DNA from: an uncultured virus (IMG/VR IMGVR_UViG_3300023174_000069)
Taxonomy: Duplodnaviria > Heunggongvirae > Uroviricota > Caudoviricetes
DNA length: 64,000 nucleotides
Direction: 5' to 3' (one strand)
IMG/VR virus record: IMGVR_UViG_3300023174_000069
This document shows positions 2,659 through 51,096 of the stretch, one piece after another; positions within the stretch are counted from its first letter, which is position 1; each line of letters starts with the position of its first letter. The notes beneath the pieces are model-generated. The model did not search any database, was not told the DNA's origin, and was given only the letters and a program-made list of their open reading frames with translations. Position numbers and translations under genes: made by a program.

Positions 2659-2690
2659 TTATGTCTTGTTGCATCGAGAGGAATATTATA

Positions 2691-3314
2691 ATGAGCACTG
2701 AACCAAAAATAAAAAATGCCATTCTCGTCAACGAATTTTCTGAATATGGTGTTAAAAATTTTAAATCAGATTTTGACGATCTTAATAATAGTGCTTTGCC
2801 TATAATTCCTATTTTTATCGATAGTTATGGTGGTGAAATCTACGCTCTCTTAGCTATGTTGGATATAATTTCTACTGCTACTAAGCCTATTGCTACCGTT
2901 GCTCTAGGAAAAGCTATGAGTTGTGGTAGTATTTTGTTGGCTTGTGGAGGATCTAAAAATCTTAGATTTGTAGGACCCAATTCTACAGTAATGGTACATG
3001 ATGCAGCTACAGTATCATTTGGAAAAATTGAAGAGCTAAAAGCTGACGTTGGTGAAGCCGAACGATTGAATATTAAAATTTTTGAAATGCTGAACGATTC
3101 TTGCGGAAAACCTAAAGGATTCTTTCAAAAATTGGTTGCGGAGAAAAAGCACGTTAATTGGTATTTGGACTCAAAAGAGGCTCTCAAACTAGGATTAGCC
3201 GATCATATTGGTTTGCCAGTAATTGATTCACTTTTTAATGTAGATGTAGTAAAAACATTTGCTGTAAAAACTGCTTCTGAGAAAAAGGTAAAGAAAAATA
3301 AGAAAGCAAAATAG
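2691..3314 (+). CDS. clpP: ClpP-like protease subunit
   Basis: IDSYGG, GKAMSCGS (Ser), VMVHD (His), EALKLGLAD; start moved to ATG 2691 after GAGAGG RBS. Confidence 0.88.
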   Translation: MSTEPKIKNAILVNEFSEYGVKNFKSDFDDLNNSALPIIPIFIDSYGGEIYALLAMLDIISTATKPIATVALGKAMSCGSILLACGGSKNLRFVGPNSTVMVHDAATVSFGKIEELKADVGEAERLNIKIFEMLNDSCGKPKGFFQKLVAEKKHVNWYLDSKEALKLGLADHIGLPVIDSLFNVDVVKTFAVKTASEKKVKKNKKAK

Positions 3315-5291: not shown

Positions 5292-5320
5292 TTGACATTG
5301 TTTCCATAGTTTGATATACT
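5292..5320 (+). promoter_or_regulatory. Sigma70-type promoter
   Basis: TTGACA-17 nt-TATACT upstream of the 5350 ORF. Confidence 0.85.
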
Positions 5321-5349: not shown

Positions 5350-7557
5350 GTGATGTCAACTAGAATTTCTTCAAAAGAAATACTTGCCAAGTTAATGGCT
5401 AAAGAAAATATCTTAGTAGAACACGCCAATGTTCCTACGGCGGGTTTTGATTTGATCAATCGCAAGTTACTTCTTCCTAACTGGAAAAATATCTCTGATG
5501 ATGTTTATACTCTTCTTATATCTCATGAGGTTGGTCATGCTCTCTATACCCCTAAAGATGAGTGGGAAAAGGAAATCATCAAACACGCCAACATAGACTT
5601 CAAGCAAGTTGTAAATATCGTTGAAGATGTTCGCATCGAAAAACTGATTCAGAATTTATATCCTGGTACGGTTCGTGCCTTTCGTGCAGGATATAATGAG
5701 TTAGAACAGTCTAATCTTTTTGGAACAAAAGATCGTGAGATTGAATCTTATGGTCTTCTAGACAGAATCAATCTTCATTTTAAAATTGGTCATTTCGGGT
5801 ACGCTAAGGTTCCTTTTAGTGATGCTGAGAAGCCTTGGTTAGATAAGATATCCTCATGTAAGACCTTTTCTGATGTAATTAACGTTGCTACGGAGTTAAA
5901 GCAATTTGTAGAAGAAAATCCTGATTCTCAAGGTGATCAGCAGGCTCAATCGGAACAAAATTCTTCAGATAATCTTGAGTCTAAGGAGTTGTCAAAATCT
6001 TTTGCCCCTAGTAAATCACAACCGGGCGGTTCTTCGTCGCAATCTTCTAATAGGTCTAGCATGTCAGAGGAGAACCAGGAATCTTCTGCTGGTGGATCAA
6101 ATAGTCCAGAAAGCACAGATAACTCAGATGATAACGATGCAACTCAAGGATCTCAAACAGATTCATCAAAAAAACCAAAGGTTTTTTCTGAGACACAAAG
6201 TCATTTTGATTCCGAGATTCAAAAATTGGTCGATACGTCCGTTTTAGAAACATTTTATGCCAACGTTCCTAAAATACAGTTAGATAAATTAGTTGTGGAT
6301 TACAAAACGGTGCACGAACAAATAACCAATTTTTATTCTAAACACTACCCTCAGATATACGACACTTTACAAACGGATGTTGAGCAATTTAAAAACATCA
6401 ATAAAAATACGGTAAATCAACTTGCTAATCTCTTTGAGATGAAAAAGAAGGCTAAACTGGATGTTCGCTCTCTTACTTCTCGTACTGGTAAGTTAGACAC
6501 CAACAAGGTATACTCGTATCGATATAATGATGATATCTTCAAGAAGCTAACCATCACACCTCAAGGTAAGAGTCATGGTTTGGTTATGTTTATTGATATG
6601 AGCAGTAGCATGACCGAGAATATTGCAGGAACCTACGAACAGTTACTTAACTTGGTTCTGTTTTGTCGTCGTGTGAATATACCATTCGATGTTTACGGAT
6701 TTACTGATGCTTATGCCTCACGTCAAGGATTGCACAAACACCCTTCTAATTCTGGTGAGCTAATGTTTCATGAGTCATTTTGTCTTAGACATTATTTTAG
6801 TAATAGAATGTCAGGAACAGAATTTAATATGGCTCTCAAGAACATTATATGCATCATGAGACACTACACTGGACAGTATTATGGTGGTGTTCCTCCACAG
6901 GAAACACTAAACACTACTCCTATGGTGCCTGCAATTTTGGCTGCAACTCAGCTTGTTAAGCAGTTTCGTGAGCAGTATCGGTTGGATATTGTAAACACAA
7001 TTTTCCTAACAGATGGTGAAGATACTCACGGTTTGGTGTGTAATGATGGTAGCGGAGAAGGAAAATACATAGGAACATCAAGACGATTTGGATGGAATGC
7101 ACAAAAATTAAATCATTACATAAGAGATCCAAAAACTCGTAAGCAGTGGCAGATTAAGGATTGCACATCTGATATGCTCAACATTTTACGAGAAACCAAC
7201 GGAGTTAAAGTAATAGGTTTTCATATTATTAAGAAGCGAGAGTTGTCTTATCTTTTAGGTCGCACTGTTACATCCGACACCGAGCTAAATAAGCACTTAG
7301 ATAACTTTAAGAACAATAAGTTCTGTGAGATTAATAATATTTCTGGATATGATGCTTACTATATGATCCCTGCTGGTAATACTCTTAGCGTTGGATCGGA
7401 TGAGTTTGAAGGAAATGTTGACACTACGATAGATTGGGATGATCAAAAGCAAGTTAAAAAGACTTTAAAAGCGGTTACTAAAAACTTTAGTAACTTCATG
7501 AAACAAAAGATGACTAACAGAATCTTATTGAATCGTTTTATAGATCATATATCATAG
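5350..7557 (+). CDS. CobT-like protein: N-terminal zincin (HExxH) domain, Ser-rich linker, C-terminal VWA domain
   Basis: HEVGH; NIVEDVRIE; MIDAS DMSSSM...TP...TDGE; partner of the MoxR/CobS ATPase. Confidence 0.85.
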   Translation: MMSTRISSKEILAKLMAKENILVEHANVPTAGFDLINRKLLLPNWKNISDDVYTLLISHEVGHALYTPKDEWEKEIIKHANIDFKQVVNIVEDVRIEKLIQNLYPGTVRAFRAGYNELEQSNLFGTKDREIESYGLLDRINLHFKIGHFGYAKVPFSDAEKPWLDKISSCKTFSDVINVATELKQFVEENPDSQGDQQAQSEQNSSDNLESKELSKSFAPSKSQPGGSSSQSSNRSSMSEENQESSAGGSNSPESTDNSDDNDATQGSQTDSSKKPKVFSETQSHFDSEIQKLVDTSVLETFYANVPKIQLDKLVVDYKTVHEQITNFYSKHYPQIYDTLQTDVEQFKNINKNTVNQLANLFEMKKKAKLDVRSLTSRTGKLDTNKVYSYRYNDDIFKKLTITPQGKSHGLVMFIDMSSSMTENIAGTYEQLLNLVLFCRRVNIPFDVYGFTDAYASRQGLHKHPSNSGELMFHESFCLRHYFSNRMSGTEFNMALKNIICIMRHYTGQYYGGVPPQETLNTTPMVPAILAATQLVKQFREQYRLDIVNTIFLTDGEDTHGLVCNDGSGEGKYIGTSRRFGWNAQKLNHYIRDPKTRKQWQIKDCTSDMLNILRETNGVKVIGFHIIKKRELSYLLGRTVTSDTELNKHLDNFKNNKFCEINNISGYDAYYMIPAGNTLSVGSDEFEGNVDTTIDWDDQKQVKKTLKAVTKNFSNFMKQKMTNRILLNRFIDHIS

Positions 7558-7561
7558 TAGT

Positions 7562-8134
7562 ATGAAACTCATTCAATCATTCAAACAAAGATTACTCCAC
7601 GAGGCAAGCGTTAAGAGCTTGTCTCGTATATGGCAGCACACCAACGAATCAAACATTGGTATGATTACTGCCTATCGTGGTGAGCTTGATCTTAAAAAGA
7701 ATGAGATGAGAAACAAGGAACTAGCTACACTGATACGTCAAGCTGGATTCGGATACATTCAAGTAACAGGCTTTTATATCGAGAATCTTGGTCAAGATGA
7801 CGAACGAAAGGTTCAGGAAAAGTCCTTTTTGATAATGTCACAGGCAAGTGACTCTGGTAAACTACGAGATTTTCTTATTAAGATGGGCATCAAGTTCAAT
7901 CAGGATTCAGTCTTTTATAAAGATGTAACCAAGGACAAAGGTGTCCTTATAGGAACAGCTTCAGGTAGATGGCCTGGGCTTAACACAGAAGTAGTAGCTG
8001 GTAGATTCACGCCACAGAAGCTAGGAACGTATTATACGAAGATGAAAGGTGATCGTAAGTTCACATTCGAGTCGGTTGAATGTCCTCAGGGGCTCATGCC
8101 TAGAGCGTTACAAGAGAAATTAGAAAACCGCTAA
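7562..8134 (+). CDS. SAM lyase (T3 SAMase-like) with capsid-targeting-like N-terminus
   Basis: ITAYRGEL..N..R...LIRQAG..TGFYIE..QEKS..FNQDSV matches T3 SAMase VSAFRSNL..N..R...LRAA..TGCYRE..EEKT..WEQDCV (recalled). Confidence 0.68.
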   Translation: MKLIQSFKQRLLHEASVKSLSRIWQHTNESNIGMITAYRGELDLKKNEMRNKELATLIRQAGFGYIQVTGFYIENLGQDDERKVQEKSFLIMSQASDSGKLRDFLIKMGIKFNQDSVFYKDVTKDKGVLIGTASGRWPGLNTEVVAGRFTPQKLGTYYTKMKGDRKFTFESVECPQGLMPRALQEKLENR

Positions 8135-8162: not shown

Positions 8163-8191
8163 TTGACATATTGATTTGGTTCCTGTAGAAT
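8163..8191 (+). promoter_or_regulatory. Sigma70-type promoter
   Basis: TTGACA-17 nt-TAGAAT. Confidence 0.85.
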
Positions 8192-8228: not shown

Positions 8229-9485
8229 ATGAATACCAATAAAAATCGTAAAGAGTTTCTTGATGCTTTGGCAACAAAATTCGGAAATTCTCCGTTTAGA
8301 CGGAAGGAATTGATTGAATTTACCAAAAAACATAATTTTACCAACTATAATTGGTTCGTAAACTCTAGCGAGTATAAGCTATCTCGTGGTGAGTATCACG
8401 TTGCTTCGAGTACACCCGTCATGACTACTGCTCCTTCCACTTCTTCTGTTTCTTCTACTTCACCTTCTGTGACTACGGAATCAGCCGTTATTCATAATTT
8501 TATAGGCGAGGTGCATCGTGAGTGTTTAGTGCCTGAGGTTGATAAGTTGTTTGTCAAACATGGTGACTTTGATTTAATCTCTAAGATTATTTCATCACGA
8601 TTGTTTTACCCAATCTTTATTACAGGTCTTTCTGGTAATGGTAAGACTTTTGGTGTCGAGCAAGCCTGCGCTCAACATAATCGTGAATTGTTTCGAGTAA
8701 ATATCACTATCGAAACCGACGAGGACGACCTTCTTGGAGGATTCAGACTTGTAAACGATAGCACCAAGTGGTTTGATGGACCTGTTATTCGAGCTATGCG
8801 CTCTGGTGGTGTTCTTTTATTGGATGAAGTTGATCTTGGTAGTAACAAGCTACTTTGTTTGCAACCTATTCTTGAGGGTAAAGGCATACTTCTCAAGAAG
8901 ATTAATCAGTATGTAAAGCCAGCTCCTGGTTTTACTATCGTAGCCACCGCAAACACCAAGGGTCAGGGTTCTGAAACTGGTAAGTTTGTAGGAACCAACA
9001 TTCTTAATGAGGCTTTTCTTGAGCGTTTCTGTGCTACGTTCGAGCAGAAGTATCCAGAAGAGCGAGTAGAGAAGAGTATTCTCAAGAAGCTATTTGCCTC
9101 TCACGATTTAAAATCCGATGTTATTGACGATTTTATTTCCAAGCTAGTTACTTGGGCATTTGGTACTCGCAAGACCTTTGAGACTGGTGGAACTTCAGAC
9201 TTGATTAGTACTCGTCGATTGGTTCATATTGTAAATGCCTATGTAATTCTTGGACACCCAGACGAGAATGATAAGAAGTCCGTGGGTGATCGCCGCCGCC
9301 AAGCTATCGAGTTGTGTATTGCACGATTCGATGAAAGCACCAAAATCTCGTTTATGAACTTCTATGAAAACATAGATCCATACTTAACAGTGGATATGGA
9401 TTCAAAACAAGATTCGGTAAATGAGAGTGAAGAGTTAAAAGCGGAAGAACATGATATTCTTTCTATTTTGACTAATCAATCATAA
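8229..9485 (+). CDS. MoxR/CobS-like AAA+ ATPase
   Basis: GLSGNGKT Walker A, LLLDEVD Walker B, ATANTKG, LNEAFLERF, ISTRRL. Confidence 0.92.
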   Translation: MNTNKNRKEFLDALATKFGNSPFRRKELIEFTKKHNFTNYNWFVNSSEYKLSRGEYHVASSTPVMTTAPSTSSVSSTSPSVTTESAVIHNFIGEVHRECLVPEVDKLFVKHGDFDLISKIISSRLFYPIFITGLSGNGKTFGVEQACAQHNRELFRVNITIETDEDDLLGGFRLVNDSTKWFDGPVIRAMRSGGVLLLDEVDLGSNKLLCLQPILEGKGILLKKINQYVKPAPGFTIVATANTKGQGSETGKFVGTNILNEAFLERFCATFEQKYPEERVEKSILKKLFASHDLKSDVIDDFISKLVTWAFGTRKTFETGGTSDLISTRRLVHIVNAYVILGHPDENDKKSVGDRRRQAIELCIARFDESTKISFMNFYENIDPYLTVDMDSKQDSVNESEELKAEEHDILSILTNQS

Positions 9486-9510: not shown

Positions 9511-9543
9511 GCCCACTTTGCCAAAAACAAAGTGGGCTTTTTT
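9511..9543 (+). terminator. Intrinsic terminator
   Basis: GCCCACTTTG-ccaaaaa-CAAAGTGGGC followed by T6. Confidence 0.85.
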
Positions 9544-15206: not shown

Positions 15207-16667
15207 ATGTCTGAACGATTTTATACAAATTGCACCTGCGTTGGCAACAACATTCTTTATAGAGGAGTTGAAAACAATAAGCGAATTAGTAAAAAGTTTA
15301 CTTTTCGTCCAAGTCTTTTCATACCCACAGATAAACAAACAAAATGGAAGACACTAGATGGTAAATGCGTTGATAAGATTCAGTTTGACGATATTAATGA
15401 TGCCAAAGATTTTGTTAGAAAGTATGAGCATATCGATAATTTTACTTATTATGGAAACACAAAGTATCAGTATGTTCATATAGCAGATTCTTTTCCTGAG
15501 ATGATCGATTACGAGTTTTCTCAGATTGTTATTGCTAACATCGATATCGAGGTTGCATCTGAAGCAGGCTTTGCGCCTGTAGAAAACCCATTTGAGCAAG
15601 TAATTGCTATCACAGTTGAGTGTCGTGGTACTTATGTTGTGTTTGGTTGTGGAGATTTTACTACTGAAAATCCTCAAGTAAAATACATCAAGTGTGACGA
15701 TGAGATGGACTTGTTGAAGCGATTCATGACTCACTGGGAACATATTGCTCCTGATGTAGTCACTGGATGGAACGTACAGTTTTATGATATTCCTTACCTT
15801 GTAAATCGCATCTCTAGATTGTTCAGCGACAAAGAAGCCAAGCGATTGTCACCATGGAAGTATCTTTCAACTAGATCTGCTTATTATAAGGGTCGCCAAC
15901 AGCAAGTAGTAGAGCTTGTAGGTATATCAACACTAGATTACTTAGAGCTTTATGGTAAGTTTCAGCCTAAGCAAGAGAGTCAAAAGCTAAACTACATCGC
16001 TCACGTTGAGTTAGGAGAAAAGAAGATTTCATATGAAGAATATGGCGATCTTCATACATTATACAAGCAGAACTATCAAAAGTTTATCGAGTATAACATA
16101 AAAGACGTAGAGCTTGTTAAAAAGCTAGAAGAAAAGCTAAAGCTGATAGAGATGTGTGCTGCTTTGGCTTATGATGCTAAGGTTAATTTAACAGATGTAT
16201 TCGCTCAAGTTAGAATGTGGGATACTATCATATTCAATCATCTCAAGAAGCAAAACATAGTAATGCCTCGTCTAGTTGATAATGAGAAGAATGCTGACTA
16301 CGCCGGCGCATATGTTAAAGAAGTTGTTCCTGGTATGTACGAGTGGGTTGTATCATTCGATTTGAACTCTCTGTATCCTAATTTGATTGCACAGTTTAAT
16401 ATTTCTCCTGAGTGTCTTATTACCAACAAGTATAGAAATGTTACCGTTCAATCATTATTGGACAAGTCCATGGATACCAAGGATTTGACTTCGGATAATA
16501 TTAGTTTGGCTGCCAATGGACACTGCTTCAGCAACGATAAGATTGGCTTTTTACCAGATATTCTTATGCGTATGTACGAAGATCGAAAGACCTACAAAAA
16601 GAAGATGTTGGAATCTCAGAAAGAATTGGAAAGAGTTAAAGAAGAATTAGCTCGTCGTGGATTATAA
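15207..16667 (+). CDS. 43: Family B DNA polymerase, N-terminal subunit (gp43A)
   Basis: ExoI DIEV, ExoII GWNVQFYDIPY, ExoIII YNIKDV, motif A SFDLNSLYP; ends in the first fingers helix. Confidence 0.95.
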   Translation: MSERFYTNCTCVGNNILYRGVENNKRISKKFTFRPSLFIPTDKQTKWKTLDGKCVDKIQFDDINDAKDFVRKYEHIDNFTYYGNTKYQYVHIADSFPEMIDYEFSQIVIANIDIEVASEAGFAPVENPFEQVIAITVECRGTYVVFGCGDFTTENPQVKYIKCDDEMDLLKRFMTHWEHIAPDVVTGWNVQFYDIPYLVNRISRLFSDKEAKRLSPWKYLSTRSAYYKGRQQQVVELVGISTLDYLELYGKFQPKQESQKLNYIAHVELGEKKISYEEYGDLHTLYKQNYQKFIEYNIKDVELVKKLEEKLKLIEMCAALAYDAKVNLTDVFAQVRMWDTIIFNHLKKQNIVMPRLVDNEKNADYAGAYVKEVVPGMYEWVVSFDLNSLYPNLIAQFNISPECLITNKYRNVTVQSLLDKSMDTKDLTSDNISLAANGHCFSNDKIGFLPDILMRMYEDRKTYKKKMLESQKELERVKEELARRGL

Positions 16668-19858: not shown

Positions 19859-20968
19859 ATGACTCAAGATTTGTCCAAACTCTCTGATATTGAACTAAAA
19901 GCCTACGCTAGAAAATTGTCATTTGATATTTCAAAATATCATAACTTTCAGCTTACAAAAAAGATTCAGCTAAACTCTGCCTATGGTGCCATGGGTAATC
20001 AATACTTTCGTTTCTACGATATTCGTTTGGCTGAAGCCGTTACACTTTCAGGACAGTTAGTGATTCAGTGGCTTGCTAAAGATATCAACAAGTATCTTAA
20101 CACGTTGCTTAAAACTTCAGATATCGATTATGTAATTGCCATCGACACAGATTCCATATATCTAAATCTTAAACAGCTTGTTGAGATGGTGTACAAAGAC
20201 AAGTTGCCTGATGATAAGTCCAAGATAGTTGATTTCTTAGATAAGGTTGCGGAAGAAAAGATACAAAAGGTAATCGATAAGAGCTGTCAAGAGCTTAGAC
20301 AATATTTAAATGCTCGCTCCCAAAAGATGCAGATGAAGCGAGAGTCTATTGCTGACAAAGCAATTTGGACAGCCAAGAAACGATACATTCTTAACGTATA
20401 TGATTCTGAAGGCGTCCGCTACGAAACACCAAAGCTAAAGATTCAAGGCATTGAAGCTGTCAAGTCATCAACTCCTGAAGTGTGTCGCCAAAAGATTAAA
20501 GATGCTATTAAGCTGATACTTACCAAAACACAATCAGATTTGCATCAGTACATAAACACATTCAAAGAACAGTTCAAGCAGTTGTCACCAGAGTTTGTGG
20601 CGTTTCCACGAGGTTGTAATGGTATTGGAACGTATTCTGATCCCAAAGCCATTTATAAGAAAGGAACTCCAATTCATGTTCGTGGTGCCTTGGTTTATAA
20701 TCGTCTCATAAAAGACAAGAAATTGGACAAAAAATATCCTTGCATCCATGAAGGAGATAAGATAAAGTTTATATACTTGAGAGAGCCTAATCCAGTACAA
20801 GAAAATGTTATCACTATGAGTGAAGAAGGTTTGCCGCAAGAGCTAAATCTACACAAGTATGTTGATTACGAATTGCAGTTTGAAAAGACGTTTGTTGATC
20901 CTCTCAAGATTATTTTGAACGCAATTAATTGGTCGACAAAGAAGACAGTGAGTTTTGATGATTTATAG
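19859..20968 (+). CDS. 43: Family B DNA polymerase, C-terminal subunit (gp43B)
   Basis: Motif B KKIQLNSAYG, motif C IDTDSIY, KKRY, KSSTP; C-terminal clamp-binding SFDDL. Confidence 0.95.
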   Translation: MTQDLSKLSDIELKAYARKLSFDISKYHNFQLTKKIQLNSAYGAMGNQYFRFYDIRLAEAVTLSGQLVIQWLAKDINKYLNTLLKTSDIDYVIAIDTDSIYLNLKQLVEMVYKDKLPDDKSKIVDFLDKVAEEKIQKVIDKSCQELRQYLNARSQKMQMKRESIADKAIWTAKKRYILNVYDSEGVRYETPKLKIQGIEAVKSSTPEVCRQKIKDAIKLILTKTQSDLHQYINTFKEQFKQLSPEFVAFPRGCNGIGTYSDPKAIYKKGTPIHVRGALVYNRLIKDKKLDKKYPCIHEGDKIKFIYLREPNPVQENVITMSEEGLPQELNLHKYVDYELQFEKTFVDPLKIILNAINWSTKKTVSFDDL

Positions 20969-23885: not shown

Positions 23886-23893
23886 CATAAATA
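23886..23893 (+). promoter_or_regulatory. T4-type late promoter variant
   Basis: CATAAATA (T4 consensus TATAAATA) at the head of the late cluster. Confidence 0.65.
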
Positions 23894-23920: not shown

Positions 23921-25141
23921 ATGATAACGTTCAAACAGTATATAATTGAATCTGCAAGTAAAAATACTCATCTTGAACATTTAGAAGATGAGATATTTAA
24001 CGGCGGAATCAATGGCACTAGAAAAGCTCTCGACTTTTTGCGAGGTCTGAGAGATATGCTCAAAGGCTCTTCAAAATCGTCGGTAAACGTTACAGTAAAG
24101 TGGGATGGTGCTCCTTCGATAATTTGTGGAATAAATCCAGAAAACAAAAAGTTTTTTGTAGCCACTAAAGCTGCGTTCAATAAAGATCCAAAATTAAATT
24201 ATACTCATGCTGATATAGACAAGAATCATGCTGGTGCTGGTACGCTAATCGATAAGCTAAAACTTGCTCTAGATTCGCTTTCGACCTCAGGAATAAAGGG
24301 TATCATACAAGGCGATATTCTGTTCACTAGAAGTAGCTTGCAAAGAAAAGAAATTAATGGTGAGCAGCTTTTAACTTTCACTCCTAACACTATTACATAT
24401 GCAGTGCCAGCAGACTCTCAATTAGCACATGAGATGAGCATGGCTAATATAGGTATTGTGTTTCATACCTCATATTCTGGTAATAAAATAGCGAAGCTAA
24501 AAGCAACATTTAATGCAAACATCTCCGGGCTTAAAAAAACTCCGGCTGCGTGGATAACTGATGCAACGTTTAGAGACGAAAGTGGTTCTGCAACACTCAC
24601 CAAAGATGAGACTGACTACGTTTCTGTTCGCTTGAGTGAAATAGGTAGATTGTTCAATCAAATGGATTCTACAAGCATTAATAAGATAGTTTCTGATGCC
24701 GAATTAATTTTAATGGTAAAGACCTATATTAACACTAAAGTTAGAGTTGGAGAAAACATAACTGGTACCAAAAAATATGCCAAGGGTCTTATCACGTTTA
24801 TTAAAGAGCGATATCAAAAAGAAATAGATAAACTAAAAACTGACAGAGGAAAAGAAGGACGAAAATTAAAGTTAAAAGAAATAGTGTCTTTTATAAACAC
24901 ACATCAAGATCAGTTTATTATTATGTTTATGATTGCTGCTTTGATGGCTGATGTTAAAGGTGTGTTTTTGAAAAAATTAAGAAAAGTCAATTCAGTTGGA
25001 ACATTCTTAGAGACTCCAGAAGGATTTAAAGTAACATCACCTGAAGGGTTTGTTGCAGTAGATCAGATGGGTTCTGCGGTGAAGCTAGTTGATAGATTAG
25101 AGTTTAGTAGAGCTAATTTTACACAAACAAAAAATTGGTAA
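23921..25141 (+). CDS. DUF6267-like protein with ligase-type (KxDG) nucleotidyltransferase motifs; capsid-targeting-like N-terminus
   Basis: MITFKQYIIE; HLEHLED; VTVKWDG, IQGDILF, PEGFV, VKLVDRLEFS. Confidence 0.65.
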   Translation: MITFKQYIIESASKNTHLEHLEDEIFNGGINGTRKALDFLRGLRDMLKGSSKSSVNVTVKWDGAPSIICGINPENKKFFVATKAAFNKDPKLNYTHADIDKNHAGAGTLIDKLKLALDSLSTSGIKGIIQGDILFTRSSLQRKEINGEQLLTFTPNTITYAVPADSQLAHEMSMANIGIVFHTSYSGNKIAKLKATFNANISGLKKTPAAWITDATFRDESGSATLTKDETDYVSVRLSEIGRLFNQMDSTSINKIVSDAELILMVKTYINTKVRVGENITGTKKYAKGLITFIKERYQKEIDKLKTDRGKEGRKLKLKEIVSFINTHQDQFIIMFMIAALMADVKGVFLKKLRKVNSVGTFLETPEGFKVTSPEGFVAVDQMGSAVKLVDRLEFSRANFTQTKNW

Positions 25142-25491: not shown

Positions 25492-26943
25492 ATGAAGCGT
25501 TTAAAACAAATTTTGACAGAAGACAAATACACACAAAAACAGCCTTGGGCTCTTGTTGACACGTCTGCAAATAATAAAATTATTGCCACCGCTTCTGATG
25601 AGACTGGAGTTAAACGGAGCATATCATCAGCACATCTTCCTCCACTCAGAGTTAAAGATAAAAGCACACTCAAGATTGTTAAGATGAAAAAGCCTCAGCA
25701 GGCTGGAGAAATGCTAAAATCTGATAATCTTGTTGAGTCAAAAGATACTCTTAAAATTGGTGATAAAATACGAACAAAACTGGGTGGTCAAACTCCTGGT
25801 ATTATTACTAAAATTGAAGGTGATAAGATTTATTTTGATCATGCAACCGCAAAATACGACACTGTGTGGTCTGGTGCAAAGGGAAAACCTAAACAGTATG
25901 TAGCTCATAGAAGCAACGTAGTGAAAGAAGAAATAAACGAAGCATTTTCAAAAGATCAACTTGCGGTTCTAAAGAAAGAATACGAAACACTACAAAAAAT
26001 GGATGTTACATCCAATTCGTATAAAAAATTGATTGCTTTGTTAAACAATTTACCACAGTCTCATCTAAAAAGTCTTGTTGATGCTGACATTAAGTTTGTG
26101 TCAAAACTTGCAAAAAATCGTTTAAAAGAAGAGACAGAAATTGACGAGCGATGTTGGGATGGATATAAACCAACTCCAGGTAAGAAACCCTATGAAAAGG
26201 GGTCTTGCATGAAAGAGAATGATAAGATTAGTGAAGCTGCTTCAGGACCAACCAGAATGGAATTGCAAAAGCATTTTGAGAAAACTCCTGGTTCTAAAGC
26301 TCAAAAACTTGCTAGTGTGGAAAAAACATTTCGAGTAAAAAACATAGTTTTGAATAGTAAACAGCAGATAGTAAATTTTGATTTAAATGAATCTTATGAT
26401 GATCTTCAAGAAGAAGCTGAACATGAAGGGAAAAAAGTTACATTAAACAAACCTTTTAGAACACCAGATGGTCCTAAAAAGTTTGCTGTGTATGTAAAGA
26501 ACGATAAGGGAAACGTGGTAAAGGTAACGTTTGGTGATCCTAATATGGAAATTAAACGTGATAATCCCGAGCGAAGAAAGAATTATCGTGCTAGACATAA
26601 CTGTTCAGATCCTGGGCCTAAATGGAAAGCAAACTACTGGTCTTGTAAGATGTGGGCTGATAAACCGGTGTCTAAAATGACTGAAGCAAAAACCACTTTT
26701 GATTTTGTCGAACTAGATGGACCAAAAACCAAGCGAGTCGTAGGTGGAATTACATCTATATCGGGAGAAAGTCCAGAGTCTGCACTGACTAATAGATTTA
26801 AAAGTATGGGTTATCAAGATATTGTTGTGACCAATACTAACGATGTTATAATGGTGTCAGCATCACATGGTAACAGCAAAGAAAAGAATTATTACAAACT
26901 TAAAAAATCTATATCTGAAGTAATTTCTTCGGATAGTAAATAA
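25492..26943 (+). CDS. Putative internal head polyprotein (modular, Glu-punctuated)
   Basis: MKRLKQILTE start; modules separated by LVES, INEA, IDER, ISEA, LQEEAE, MTEA; contains CWDGYK and FGDPNM...RARHNC...YWSC modules. Confidence 0.55.
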   Translation: MKRLKQILTEDKYTQKQPWALVDTSANNKIIATASDETGVKRSISSAHLPPLRVKDKSTLKIVKMKKPQQAGEMLKSDNLVESKDTLKIGDKIRTKLGGQTPGIITKIEGDKIYFDHATAKYDTVWSGAKGKPKQYVAHRSNVVKEEINEAFSKDQLAVLKKEYETLQKMDVTSNSYKKLIALLNNLPQSHLKSLVDADIKFVSKLAKNRLKEETEIDERCWDGYKPTPGKKPYEKGSCMKENDKISEAASGPTRMELQKHFEKTPGSKAQKLASVEKTFRVKNIVLNSKQQIVNFDLNESYDDLQEEAEHEGKKVTLNKPFRTPDGPKKFAVYVKNDKGNVVKVTFGDPNMEIKRDNPERRKNYRARHNCSDPGPKWKANYWSCKMWADKPVSKMTEAKTTFDFVELDGPKTKRVVGGITSISGESPESALTNRFKSMGYQDIVVTNTNDVIMVSASHGNSKEKNYYKLKKSISEVISSDSK

Positions 26944-27199: not shown

Positions 27200-28210
27200 A
27201 TGAAACCCTTAAAAACGATACTAAAAAAGAAAACGGCAGTGTTTGCTTTTGGAAGAATGAACCCTCCTACGGCAGGTCACGAAAAGCTAATAAAAAAAGT
27301 GCTTGAAGTTGCCAAGAAATCTTCTGCTACTCCTTTTTTGTTTGTCTCACATACACAAGATGCCAAAAAGAATCCTTTAACTAGCAAGCAAAAAGTAAAA
27401 TACATTAAGTTAGGAATACCAGCAATAGCAAAAAATGTTGTGTATGATCCTAATATTAAGACACCATTTCAAGCTCTAAAACACATAGAAGAGTTGGGAT
27501 ACACTGATGTCATAATGATAGCAGGAGCAGACAGAGTTGCAGAATTTAACAAAACTATAGGTAGCTATGTGAATCATCCAGATCCTAGCAAAAGTTTTAA
27601 TTTAGATTCTTTTAAAGTAGTTTCTGCCGGAGATAGAGATCCTGACGCCGAAGGAGTCACGGGAATAAGTGGCTCAAAGATGCGAGAATTTGTAACAAAA
27701 AATGATTTTGCATCATTCAAGAAAGGTGTTCCTTCCAATTTGAGTGATAAGTATGCCAAAGAGATGTTTGATGCTATTAAAAAATCTATGAATGTTATGG
27801 AGATGTTTGAAGAGGTAAAGCGCATAACTAACTCACTCAACATTCCTAGAAACAAGATGCCTCAGATTAAAAAAGATAATATACCAGAGTTTATTAAAAC
27901 CTTAAAGAGAAGTGGTGTTGATATTCAAAATCGAGAAATTTCTGTTAAATCGTTGAAGCCTACACAAAATGAAATCAACATGAACAAGGTCAAAGAAAAG
28001 TATGATAAGCTATCGGATGGTGGCTCAATTAAACCTTTTATCGTGTCTTACGATAATTATATTTTGGATGGTCATCATCAACTTTTCGCACTTAAAACTT
28101 TGGATTCAGACATGAAAGTTTCTTGTTTTGTTATCAGTGTTAGTATGAAAGATTTACTCAAACACGCCCGAGCTTTTCCAAAAACTACCTATAAAACTAT
28201 CGCTGACTAA
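27200..28210 (+). CDS. Cytidylyltransferase-like (HIGH-class) protein fused to a C-terminal ParB/Srx-like domain
   Basis: FGRMNPPTAGH, GADR, SAGDRD, SGSKMR; C-terminal LKPTQ...ILDGHH. Confidence 0.8.
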   Translation: MKPLKTILKKKTAVFAFGRMNPPTAGHEKLIKKVLEVAKKSSATPFLFVSHTQDAKKNPLTSKQKVKYIKLGIPAIAKNVVYDPNIKTPFQALKHIEELGYTDVIMIAGADRVAEFNKTIGSYVNHPDPSKSFNLDSFKVVSAGDRDPDAEGVTGISGSKMREFVTKNDFASFKKGVPSNLSDKYAKEMFDAIKKSMNVMEMFEEVKRITNSLNIPRNKMPQIKKDNIPEFIKTLKRSGVDIQNREISVKSLKPTQNEINMNKVKEKYDKLSDGGSIKPFIVSYDNYILDGHHQLFALKTLDSDMKVSCFVISVSMKDLLKHARAFPKTTYKTIAD

Positions 28211-28218: not shown

Positions 28219-28560
28219 ATGAAGACCTTAAAAGAAATTTTACAAGAAGCCAAATCTACTCCTCAGATTGCCAAAAACAAACCACCTACTGCTGTAGATC
28301 AGGTTCGTAAACGTCATGAGAGAGAAAAGAAAGAGTTAAAAAATAAGCAAAGTCGAGAAGCTGAAAAGGCTCGTGAAAGAGATTTTAGAGCCAAGGAATC
28401 AGAAAGACGAACCAAAGATCAGCAAAAGGCGGCACAGCAAGCAGCAAAGAGCGAAGATGTAGATTTTGGACAGAACAATGAAAATATATATGAGTATTTG
28501 GAAGATGGTACCTTGGAGCTAGTACAAACTTACAAAAAAAGTTTGCCTGGTCAAGAATAA
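28219..28560 (+). CDS. Charged hypothetical protein with capsid-targeting-like N-terminus
   Basis: MKTLKEILQEA; highly charged helix. Confidence 0.65.
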   Translation: MKTLKEILQEAKSTPQIAKNKPPTAVDQVRKRHEREKKELKNKQSREAEKARERDFRAKESERRTKDQQKAAQQAAKSEDVDFGQNNENIYEYLEDGTLELVQTYKKSLPGQE

Positions 28561-30756: not shown

Positions 30757-31329
30757 ATGAAATCGTTTTCTCAATATCTAAAAGAAGATGTTGCAACACA
30801 AGTAAAGTTGCCAGAACTATACTTAGATATGGATGAAACGCTTGTAGATTGGATGTCAGGAGCCAATGCAGCATTAATAGCAGCAGGTAAACCCGAATGG
30901 AAAGATCCTTATTGGAAAGAAAATCACTCTGACGAAGAAGCCGATGAGATTAGATGGGCTATATTAAACAAAACTCCAAATTTTTGGGAAAATCTTGAAT
31001 TTACACCTGATGGTCTAATAATTTGGAAGTTTGTTAAAAAATATAGACCTAATATTTTAAGTGCTTGTGGTACACTAGCTAAGACCTGTAAAGCCGGTAA
31101 AAGACGATGGTTAGCTAGACGATTAGGTATGAAGAATTTAGGAAAGATATATTTGGTCAAAAGAAGTCAAAAGAAGTTGTTTGCTAGAACCGAAGACAAA
31201 AAGTCTACTGTATTAATAGACGATTATATAAAAAATTGTCAGGAATACAAAGCCGCCGGTGGAATAGCAATCCAAGTTACTACCGCTAATCAAGTTATAG
31301 GCAAACTAAAGAAACTGGGATTTCGATAA
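30757..31329 (+). CDS. HAD-family phosphatase (5'(3')-nucleotidase-like) with capsid-targeting-like N-terminus
   Basis: MKSFSQYLKE; YLDMDETL, ILSA, GK..W, LIDDY. Confidence 0.85.
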   Translation: MKSFSQYLKEDVATQVKLPELYLDMDETLVDWMSGANAALIAAGKPEWKDPYWKENHSDEEADEIRWAILNKTPNFWENLEFTPDGLIIWKFVKKYRPNILSACGTLAKTCKAGKRRWLARRLGMKNLGKIYLVKRSQKKLFARTEDKKSTVLIDDYIKNCQEYKAAGGIAIQVTTANQVIGKLKKLGFR

Positions 31330-31695: not shown

Positions 31696-32109
31696 ATGCT
31701 TGATACTATTGATTCAAATATGGCAACAAGACTTACAGAAAAGAATCTTGTGATGTATGCCATGAAACATTATGATAACGTTCAGTGTGTTGATGTTGAT
31801 GAGTTTTATGATGATCTAAAAAGAATTAATTACATAAAGCGTCTGTTTGTCAGATATCAAAATTCTGATGAACTAAAAGATCGTCTGATACTCAATCATC
31901 TTATCATATTATACAACGTATTTCCTATAGAAGTTGCTACTAATATTCTGTTTTTCAAAATCGACAGCGATTATTGGTCATATCTAAAAACATTTTTGGT
32001 ATATTTGAATTATATGCCAGACAAACTGACCTTCTTAGAAAATTGCGAAATAATAACTACAGATATTCCACTAGATCAGGGAATAATATCAGTTTTGAGA
32101 CAGATATGA
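31696..32109 (+). CDS. Conserved T4-like hypothetical protein
   Basis: YAMKHYDN..C...EFYDDLKRINYIKRL...RLILNHLIILYNVF. Confidence 0.75.
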   Translation: MLDTIDSNMATRLTEKNLVMYAMKHYDNVQCVDVDEFYDDLKRINYIKRLFVRYQNSDELKDRLILNHLIILYNVFPIEVATNILFFKIDSDYWSYLKTFLVYLNYMPDKLTFLENCEIITTDIPLDQGIISVLRQI

Positions 32110-32471
32110 AGTCATTTAAAAGCTATTTGCTCTCAGAAGGAAAACTTTCGCTAGATGATGCGAAAAAATTAGGCGACAGTCTTTCTGTAGATTGGAAAAA
32201 AATCGATATAAAGCAGTTTAAAATGGGACTAGATGTAGAATCCGAACACGATGACGGGTCAGAGCTAGATGTGGTAGATTCCAAAAAAGATTTAGCCAAA
32301 ATTGTTTTAGCACATTTAAAAGAAAGACCAGACTATTACACCAGACTCAAGAGTGTGGAAGAAGATGTTCCTGCAAACAATGTTGGATCTGGCAATATTT
32401 CTGGAATAAAAGAGCCAATATTATCAAAAAATCCAGTTTTACTCAAGAGAAAACGATTAAATATACATTGA
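32106..32471 (+). CDS. DUF5661-like protein with capsid-targeting-like N-terminus
   Basis: Real start ATG 32106: MKSFKSYLLSE; MGLDVESEH...AKIVLAHLKERPDYYTRL. Confidence 0.65.
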   Translation: MKSFKSYLLSEGKLSLDDAKKLGDSLSVDWKKIDIKQFKMGLDVESEHDDGSELDVVDSKKDLAKIVLAHLKERPDYYTRLKSVEEDVPANNVGSGNISGIKEPILSKNPVLLKRKRLNIH

Positions 32472-50217: not shown

Positions 50218-51096
50218 ATGAAATCTTTTAATAATTTTTTGCATGAGTCTATATTAGACCCAGAACAATCAAGTTTAAGTTCTGTGGTGTTTGATCTAAA
50301 CGATGAGCCTAAACTTAAAGATTCTGTAAGAGATGAGATTTTGACTAAAATTGCACATTTAGGCAAAACAGTTGATATAATCGACTATACTCTGATAGGT
50401 AGCATTTTAACTAGACGATTTGCAAACGATTCTGATATTGACATCAATGTTTTGGTGTCAGCTTCAGATGAAAAAATGAATCAAATTAGAAAAACTGCGG
50501 TTGAACTTAGTGGAGATTTTCTTTCAAACACAACACATCCCATAAACTTACATGTTTTAAACGACAAAGCCGACTATGACAATGCCAATAATTCGGCTGA
50601 CGGGGTTTTCGACATTAGCAATAATAAGTTTGTTCGCAAGCCTATAGAAAAACCATTTCATATAGAAAAATATATGAAATTATTTAAAGATGCGATTTCA
50701 AAGATTGATATTCTTAAAGACGAACTTAAAGACGATATCGTTGATTACAATGAGTTAAAACATTTTTCTAAAGACGATATGAAATCTTTACAAAAAGAAA
50801 TTGAATCAAAAATTAAAGAAATAGAAAGTGATGCACAAGGTTTGGTGAATCTATACGACAACATAAAAAAACAACGTGCCGATGGGTTTGCAAGATCATT
50901 AAGTGCATCCGAAATTAGACAGTATGGTGTTAAAAATAGGCTTCCAGGAAACGTCTTGTACAAGTTGCTGGAGCGTCATTTGTACCTTAATTTTTTACAC
51001 AAGATACAAGAGATTCTTGGAGATGATGAAAAACTCTCATCCAAAGAGATAGACCAACTAGATAATCTAGTAAAAACACAAAGTTATCAACTATAA
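50218..51096 (+). CDS. Pol-beta-superfamily nucleotidyltransferase with capsid-targeting-like N-terminus
   Basis: Real start ATG 50218: MKSFNNFLHE; IGS....F...SDIDINV, HPINLHV. Confidence 0.75.
   Translation: MKSFNNFLHESILDPEQSSLSSVVFDLNDEPKLKDSVRDEILTKIAHLGKTVDIIDYTLIGSILTRRFANDSDIDINVLVSASDEKMNQIRKTAVELSGDFLSNTTHPINLHVLNDKADYDNANNSADGVFDISNNKFVRKPIEKPFHIEKYMKLFKDAISKIDILKDELKDDIVDYNELKHFSKDDMKSLQKEIESKIKEIESDAQGLVNLYDNIKKQRADGFARSLSASEIRQYGVKNRLPGNVLYKLLERHLYLNFLHKIQEILGDDEKLSSKEIDQLDNLVKTQSYQL

Follow-up and report, generated by a model that had tools for sequence, protein, structure and literature searches.

A T3-type SAM lyase with a putative head-targeting leader in an uncultured T4-like phage

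Phage S-adenosylmethionine (SAM) lyases convert SAM, the methyl donor of the cell, into methylthioadenosine (MTA) and homoserine lactone, and they counter Type I restriction and bacteriophage exclusion (BREX). In the podovirus T3 the SAM lyase (gp0.3) is the first early protein, and we know of no packaging of this enzyme. Phage T4 employs the internal protein IPI, which blocks a restriction enzyme. Here we describe a gene for a T3-type SAM lyase that begins with a leader loosely resembling those of the T4 internal proteins. It is located on 64,000 nucleotides (nt) of DNA from an uncultured virus of the Caudoviricetes (IMG/VR record IMGVR_UViG_3300023174_000069); this whole stretch, which is part of a T4-like myovirus, is called the window in the following. 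According to a review of T4 head assembly, the propeptides of T4 are 10–19 residues long and are cut by the head protease gp21 after L/I-x-E; residues 4 and 7 are the main determinants of targeting, and residues 8 and 10 matter for processing (PMC9026906). From the cyanophage S-CREM2, a "SAM hydrolase", gp6, was reported with 19 unique peptides in CsCl-purified virions, among 52 proteins detected in the virion proteome, and the authors suggested that the enzyme passes from the virion into the host (PMC10665884, 2023). A virion SAM lyase is, hence, already in print since 2023.

The gene in the window and the elements of its product are:

7562..8134, + strand, open reading frame of the SAM lyase, 190 amino acids (aa), ATG to TAA, T3-type with an N-terminal leader (reading frame, PF23780, fold)
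7562..7603, + strand, putative head-targeting propeptide MKLIQSFKQRLLHE, codons 1-14, ending in L-x-E (layout of T4 ipI-III, rules in PMC9026906, low model confidence, no T3 counterpart)
7604..7660, + strand, N-terminal helix with an S-L-S-R motif (residues 19-22), codons 15-33 (family alignment; helix 7-29 in the model)
7661..8047, + strand, S-AdoMet lyase domain, codons 34-162 (Pfam PF23780)
7769..7777, + strand, G70-F71-Y72, packing of the ribose and cation-pi contact with the sulfonium, counterpart of T3 G55-C56-Y57 and Svi3-3 G56-V57-Y58 (alignments; roles from PMC7877911)
7817..7819, + strand, E86, glutamate central to SAM binding, counterpart of T3 E68 and Svi3-3 E69 (alignments; mutants in PMC7877911)
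7901..7909, + strand, Q114-D115-S116, equivalent to T3 Q94-D95-C96 and Svi3-3 Q104-E105-S106 (alignments)

The Pfam model PF23780 (S-AdoMet_lyase) matches residues 34-162 with an E-value of 3.4e-13 and 50.1 bits (gathering cut-off 28), and it is present in all 44 sequence relatives from metagenomes. NCBIfam holds no model for the window lyase, and a PDB search with the single window sequence gave nothing at E <= 10. When a profile of 19 relatives was used, the T3 SAM lyase (7OCK, E 0.037) was the sole PDB chain at E <= 10. Alignment by hhalign with the gene 0.3 sequence of the T3 record yielded E 0.0019 and 26% identity over 110 columns. Both alignments pair the same motifs (window/T3): ITAYRGEL/LVSAFRSNL, TGFYIE/TGCYRE, QEKS/EEKT and NQDSV/EQDCV. 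The original prediction had started from just this pattern, and the likeness to T3 is beyond chance because of the PF23780 score.

An AlphaFold (AF2) model built on the 19 relatives reached a mean predicted local distance difference test score (pLDDT) of 75.5, with about 90 in the core. Its best PDB chains in Foldseek are the T3 SAM lyases 8BB1 and 7OCK (E 2.4e-4, prob 1.00), followed by Svi3-3 (6ZM9); of the two comparisons that had been proposed as a check, the profile search matched T3 SAMase, and Foldseek matched both T3 SAMase and Svi3-3, T3 first. In VIA-align, run against 48,161 representative chains, Z >= 8 was reached by the T3 SAM lyase alone (Z 11.1, rmsd 3.4-3.8 A over 125-127 residues), Svi3-3 scored Z 7.0-7.6 over about 100 residues, and unrelated ferredoxin-like folds did not exceed 6.4. 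The T3-type fold includes the C-terminal strands, with model residues 21-174 lying on residues 3-145 of the T3 chain.

In Svi3-3, SAM is held by G56, Y58, E69 and Q104, and E69 was equated with T3 E68 (eLife, PMC7877911). Their equivalents in the window protein, G70, Y72, E86 and Q114, are invariant in the 19 close relatives and also in a second alignment of 11 sequences that combines near and far relatives. Because family match, fold and all four SAM-holding residues agree, the window protein is very probably an active SAM lyase of the T3 type. With T3 gp0.3 (7OCK, 8BB1) it shares the Pfam family, the best structural match and the equivalent Gly, Tyr, Glu and Gln residues, so that the same chemistry and the same anti-defence role are expected. 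Identity is only about 14-17% in the structural alignments, as against 26% in hhalign; furthermore, the window protein has about 18 extra N-terminal residues and is without the MetK-binding tail and loop residues of T3. Svi3-3 (6ZM9, 6ZNB) belongs to the same family and has the equivalent G56, Y58, E69 and Q104, but is the weaker structural match. The T3 enzyme was described as a monomeric barrel on MetK and Svi3-3 as a trimer (bioRxiv 10.1101/2023.02.27.530186).

The extra N-terminal residues form the leader. The sequence MKLIQSFKQRLLHE is followed by A15 and carries a hydrophobic pair at positions 4 and 7 (I4 and F7, with Ile where T4 has Tyr/Phe). It ends in L12-H13-E14, an L/I-x-E processing motif, and a cut by a head protease would be expected between E14 and A15. 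The leaders in the T4 record are MKTYQEFIAE for ipII and ipIII and MKTFKEFTSTTTPVSTITE for ipI, each followed by A. The window leader agrees with these at M1, K2 and F7, at position 4, which is hydrophobic, and in an L-x-E followed by A, which comes later. The resemblance to T4 internal-protein leaders noticed at the outset therefore stands, though loosely and not as an exact match. The likeness to T4 IPI-III extends to the length of the propeptide (10-19 residues) and to a small basic cargo (pI 9.6 for the window protein) with an anti-defence role. Differences are the cargo, an enzyme of another fold, Ile 4, Lys 8 and the position of the putative cut motif at 12-14.

Residues 1-18 have a pLDDT below 50 and are without a counterpart in the T3 SAM lyase; model residue 21 is paired with residue 3 of that enzyme. 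This position outside the confident fold, together with the absence from T3, counts in favour of loading into the head, as do the basic pI and the conservation of the leader. The leader is not decayed: F7, L12, H13 and E14 are conserved across relatives that are 56-95% identical, and the sub-clade of the window lyase starts with M-[KR]-x-[IL]-x-x-F, a register that corresponds to T4 positions 4 and 7. Next to the leader, in the mixed alignment of 11 sequences, S19, L20 and S21 are nearly invariant and R22 is invariant.

We collected 58 distinct family N-termini from 80 IMG/VR loci, seven isolates and the window. A hydrophobic-x-E motif is located 16-26 residues ahead of the first strand in 56 of these, followed by A in 28 and by S in 20 cases, and the heptad M-[KQRN]-x-hydrophobic-x-x-hydrophobic lies inside the leader of 15. 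Several distant homologues of the window protein begin almost as T4 ipII and ipIII do: MKTFSEFLGE followed by S in Paraglaciecola phage GD1 gp48, MKTYKEFLQE followed by K in the IMG/VR locus L092, MKDFDSFLEE at the start of S-CREM2 gp6 and, counted from its third Met, MKTYKEFIQDIQE followed by S in P-TIM68 gp123. The annotated start of the latter gene (MIMPQT.., P-TIM68 locus L007, 2941-3456) lies inside the stretch between an ATAAATA heptamer and the third Met. A start 18 nt downstream of the annotated one (MKTYKEF.., 28 nt after ATAAATA) is the more likely candidate.

The layout with aromatic residues is found at 21 of 7,945 distinct ATG starts in the window and the 80 loci, compared with 0, 0, 0, 0, 6, 0 and 2 for seven shifted control patterns. 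Most of these 21 starts belong to proteins other than SAM lyases, among them a family of about 300 aa with a DGDGDCM motif and a HAD-like family of 177 aa.

The link between this layout and the virion comes from S-CREM2. Its gp6 (414 aa, PF23780 with 70.1 bits) is 31% identical to residues 9-176 of the window protein, and the two are homologues. Like the window lyase, gp6 has an N-terminal tag, L-x-E (followed by S) and the S-L-S-R helix, and both come from marine T4-like phages with a split DNA polymerase. The S-CREM2 record holds 221 annotated features; we scanned bases 1-170,000, with 4,735 start candidates, for the 10-residue layout. Six candidates matched; each is the start of an annotated gene, and five of them belong to proteins of the virion proteome, namely gp6, gp13, the kinase gp14, gp136 and the cytidylyltransferase gp154, while the 55-aa gp175 has the layout and is absent from the proteome (PMC10665884). 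Five register-shifted control patterns gave 1, 1, 0, 1 and 0 matches.

The gene of gp6 is adjoined on the minus strand by a block of virion-detected proteins, gp12-gp15 (locus L011, 7704-13331), in which the tag heads gp13, gp14 and gp15. In the Cas9-like gp12 the stretch LRFASFMAE, followed by A, occurs at residues 18-26 and not at the start. Furthermore, in S-CREM2 (L004, 2905-5203) and in S-N03 (L005, 1949-4113), both cluster-C cyanophages, a DNA adenine methylase gene is followed by one small open reading frame and then by a long SAM lyase gene. DNA adenine methylase itself requires SAM. The virion proteome of another cyanophage, S-SCSM2R, with 23 listed proteins, contains no SAM lyase (PMC12801897), and whether S-SCSM2R has the gene was not checked.

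The same tag is also present on other genes of the phage studied here. Scored as a hydrophobic residue at 4 and at 7, [LIVMF] at 8 and E at 10, the layout occurs in five of the 67 + strand genes between 68 and 54968 of the window, as against 0.10 +/- 0.31 in shuffled N-termini (maximum 2 in 2000). In one of the five, at 50218, the start was set to an internal ATG after the motif had been seen there; otherwise the count is four of 67. Hence, five unrelated proteins of this phage share the leader, and the lyase itself fits its loose form only. These genes, a sixth one that fits with one extra residue, and one further gene without the complete tag are:

23921-25141, + strand, tagged gene, MITFKQYIIE
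25492-26943, + strand, tagged gene, MKRLKQILTE
27200-28210, + strand, NMNAT-like cytidylyltransferase, MKPLKTILKK (no E at 10)
28219-28560, + strand, tagged gene, MKTLKEILQE
30757-31329, + strand, tagged gene, MKSFSQYLKE, HAD/deoxyribonucleotidase-like
32106-32471, + strand, sixth gene, MKSFKSYLLSE, one extra residue, DUF5661
50218-51096, + strand, tagged gene, MKSFNNFLHE, weak match to Pol-beta nucleotidyltransferases

Judged by their N-termini, these six other tagged genes, which are mutually unrelated, may encode cargo that is loaded into the head. Two of the tags, MKTLKEILQE and MKRLKQILTE, have Leu at 4 and Ile at 7 in place of aromatic residues, and the lyase is likewise aliphatic at position 4. 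The cytidylyltransferase at 27200 is homologous to S-CREM2 gp154 (29% identity, E 2.7e-22), a virion protein with the full tag (PMC10665884).

The head module is outside the window. The contig with a 94%-identical lyase gene (L013) encodes a gp21-type protease (Peptidase_S77, E 3.2e-39). Three of five related records encode such a protease, among them the two whose completeness is 90% or more. On the contig of the 94%-identical relative, this protease is adjoined by a gene for a 409-aa acidic, scaffold-like protein (L100, 4449-5678, minus strand). It begins with MAITSKFLRDIRE followed by S and has the same F-[IL]-x-D-I-x-E layout, followed by S, as the leader of P-TIM68 gp123.

The lyase gene lies between two genes of a CobT/CobS-like pair:

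5292..5320, + strand, sigma-70-like promoter (11/12) ahead of the CobT-like gene
5350..7557, + strand, 735-aa phrog_459 "peptidase", CobT-like partner of CobS (phrog_459 match E 2.8e-188)
8163..8191, + strand, sigma-70-like promoter (11/12) within the gap ahead of cobS
8229..9485, + strand, CobS / MoxR-type AAA_5 ATPase (domain matches)

The stop codon of the CobT-like gene and the ATG of the lyase gene are 4 nt apart, and 94 nt separate the lyase gene from cobS. The promoter at 5292..5320 likely drives both the CobT-like gene and, as the last gene of the unit, the SAM lyase gene. The original prediction had placed the gene between a VWA gene and its MoxR partner. As to position this is right, but a VWA domain was not recovered in the 735-aa protein, neither in Pfam at E <= 1 nor in NCBIfam. 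That the lyase gene looks as if inserted is borne out, because the content of the slot between the flanking genes varies among relatives. The slot is empty in S-CREM1, contains small open reading frames and a denV-type glycosylase gene in P-SSM7 and S-MbCM6, and holds five genes in P-TIM68, one of which (gp123) is homologous to the window lyase. We also considered the slot genes of P-SSM7 and S-MbCM6 as distant lyase homologues and rejected this, the BLASTP search being empty and the proteins being of the denV type (Pyr_excise).

The T4-like character of the window is evident from genes for a gp46/47-type nuclease, the clamp, the clamp loader, regA, a split gp43, uvsX, gp41, gp61, gp32 and the baseplate; its gp41 is 55-59% identical to gp41 of cyanomyoviruses and of the Methylophilales phage Melnitz. 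The two parts of the gp43 DNA polymerase gene (15207-16667 and 19859-20968, + strand) are separated by 3.2 kb, a stretch with genes for a dCMP deaminase and a phosphoesterase. The polymerase gene is split in the same way in S-CREM2, where the parts are annotated as subunits A and B. A ClpP-family protease gene (2661-3314, + strand, PF00574, E 6.4e-23) is located between the SbcC-like and the CobT-like gene and is not a head protease of the gp21 type. Directly 3' of cobS a strong terminator-like hairpin is found, with 10 pairs and a T run (9511-9537, + strand). The window has a single copy of the sequence TATAAATA, as against 7.4 expected, and this sequence is uninformative near the lyase gene.

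From these observations the following course of events may be proposed. The lyase would be made together with the CobT-like protein from the early-type promoter, would cleave SAM to MTA and homoserine lactone and would starve host defences that depend on SAM, among them Type I restriction and BREX. The leader, residues 1-14, would represent a diverged form of a T4-type capsid-targeting propeptide that heads the whole protein family. The hydrophobic pair near the N-terminus would dock the protein on the prohead core, and a gp21-type head protease would cut at L-x-E and leave a lyase trimmed to start at A15. Part of the lyase would thus be taken into assembling heads, be delivered with the DNA at the next infection, and act before any phage gene is read.

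The suggestion that such an enzyme is pre-packaged and injected is well supported for the family, in which S-CREM2 gp6 was found in virions (PMC10665884) and has a leader common to other virion proteins. For the copy in the window it is plausible, and we would put its loading into heads at slightly less than an even chance. Several observations on this copy speak against its loading. Its leader departs from MKSFxx[FY]LxE, the consensus of the phage's own tagged genes: position 8 is K instead of L/I, and L-x-E comes four residues later, at 12-14. The conserved F of the clade stands at position 4, 5 or 7 when counted from Met1, yet always five residues before L-H-E, and an F fixed relative to L-H-E fits a structural helix as well as a tag. 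Moreover, the hydrophobic-x-E motif before the S-L-S-R helix may be structural, because it is kept even in two members with leaders of 6 residues. Finally, the window protein has nothing that corresponds to the Lys/Gly-rich C-terminal half of S-CREM2 gp6.

Gene order and promoters weigh in the same direction. The heptamer ATAAATA looks, from its distribution, like the late promoter core of this phage. It occurs 12 times in the window where 30 occurrences are expected, for instance at 23887, 28876, 31326, 58710 (minus strand) and 59986 (minus strand), mostly preceding structural genes (baseplate, neck), and also 28 nt before the tagged gene at 23921. Between base 1 of the window and the lyase gene there is none on the + strand. 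ATAAATA lies about 28 nt upstream of S-CREM2 gp6, of the S-N03 gene and of P-TIM68 gp123, and 20-30 nt upstream of S-CREM2 gp13, gp15, gp136 and gp154. Among 62 distinct family genes 12 have it at 15-45 nt upstream, compared with 55 of 1,760 random positions when it is counted anywhere within 100 nt. In the clade of the window lyase, none of nine distinct genes has it (window, L013-L015, L017-L021), and all nine abut the stop of the CobT-like gene or follow it within about 10 nt. S-CREM2 gp6 differs from the window lyase in all these respects, having the canonical 10-residue tag, the late-promoter motif 28 nt upstream and a place in a cluster of virion-detected tagged proteins (PMC10665884) instead of between CobT-like and CobS genes. 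We considered the late motif as a marker of tagged family members and rejected it, the heptad being present in four of 12 members with the motif and in 13 of 50 without it. Since motif and heptad do not go together in the family, the lack of the late motif weighs little.

The most serious alternative is an enzyme that acts intracellularly only, as in T3. It would be made early with the CobT-like protein and left unloaded, and its first 14 residues would be either a relic of the family tag or the start of a structural helix. This would agree with the sigma-70-like promoter (11/12) at 5292-5320 and the 4-nt spacing, the lyase gene being without a strong promoter of its own, with the arrangement common to the whole clade, and with the absence of ATAAATA upstream, although elsewhere in the window the motif precedes structural genes as well as the tagged gene at 23921. 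The off-consensus leader, with its F fixed to L-H-E and not to Met1, points the same way, as does the L or I that follows the E in four clade members (L018, L019, L021, L022). On the other hand, the leader is undecayed, with F7, L12, H13 and E14 kept, and the register of the sub-clade matches T4 positions 4 and 7. The T3 SAM lyase does without these residues, and the missing late motif fails to separate tagged from untagged members. On balance we consider a purely intracellular role a real possibility, somewhat less likely than loading.

Another possibility concerns the substrate, which might be a SAM derivative such as SAM-AMP, the signal of type III CRISPR systems; in that case the protein would serve as an anti-CRISPR, in the manner of a phage SAM-AMP lyase reported in 2025. 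SAM-AMP lyases, such as an enzyme of a C. botulinum type III CRISPR system and the phage candidate AcrIIIB4, belong to the same superfamily and share fold, catalytic Glu and catalytic Gln with SAM lyases, and one of the phage enzymes was active on SAM-AMP and inactive on SAM (PMC12255297). The residues conserved here do not reveal the substrate. These enzymes differ in substrate and ligand pose, the C. botulinum one has pocket residues for the extra AMP, such as W64, F84, T110 and Y122, and the phage member has an added N-terminal part. For the window protein, however, the T3 SAM lyase is the closest solved structure by a wide margin (Z 11.1 versus 7.0 for the next), the profile of its relatives finds this enzyme and no other PDB chain at E <= 10, and Y72 corresponds to the Svi3-3 Tyr that makes the stacking contact with the sulfonium (PMC7877911). 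SAM-AMP lyases are absent among the sequence matches listed and, as structures, among the matches listed in three structure searches; the latter excludes nothing. Altogether, activity on SAM-AMP is quite improbable. Lowering of SAM chiefly through blockage of MetK, the SAM synthetase of the host, to which the protein would bind as T3 SAM lyase also does, with catalysis secondary, is suggested by the T3-type fold including its C-terminal strands (model 21-174 on chain 3-145) and by the binding of T3 SAM lyase to MetK, but judged by the sequence it is unlikely, indeed very improbable, because the T3 contacts, namely the N-terminal tail residues 1-9 and Q103, T104 and H105, which are kept only among close T3 relatives (bioRxiv 10.1101/2023.02.27.530186), are not kept: the tail is without an aligned counterpart, and V122, T123 and K124 retain one of the three loop residues.

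The head-loading reading set out above joins three lines: the SAM hydrolase in S-CREM2 virions, published in 2023 (PMC10665884), the capsid-targeting sequence of T4 with its gp21 cut site, and the same signal on other virion enzymes and on several genes of the window. In the literature searched, with most subscription journals outside its coverage, we found no paper that links a capsid-targeting sequence to cyanophages or to SAM lyases.

Somewhat more tentatively, we suggest that marine T4-like phages use a modular head-loading system. One tag, M-K-x-F-x-x-[FY]-L-x-E, would be placed on many unrelated enzymes, such as SAM lyase, NMNAT-like cytidylyltransferase, HAD-type nucleotidase, Pol-beta-type nucleotidyltransferase, kinase and nuclease, which would be injected with the DNA as a kit. 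At least six such genes would belong to the phage studied here, and its SAM lyase would work in a dual mode, made early and also carried to the next host. We give this wider picture somewhat less than an even chance.

An expressed SAM lyase acts only after the DNA is already exposed, and a pre-loaded enzyme would close this gap. If so, there would be a SAM-free moment exactly when naked DNA arrives in the next host. Should the signal be confirmed, injected cargo would become predictable from sequence alone in uncultured T4-like phages, and the tag would be usable for loading proteins into the heads of marine phages.

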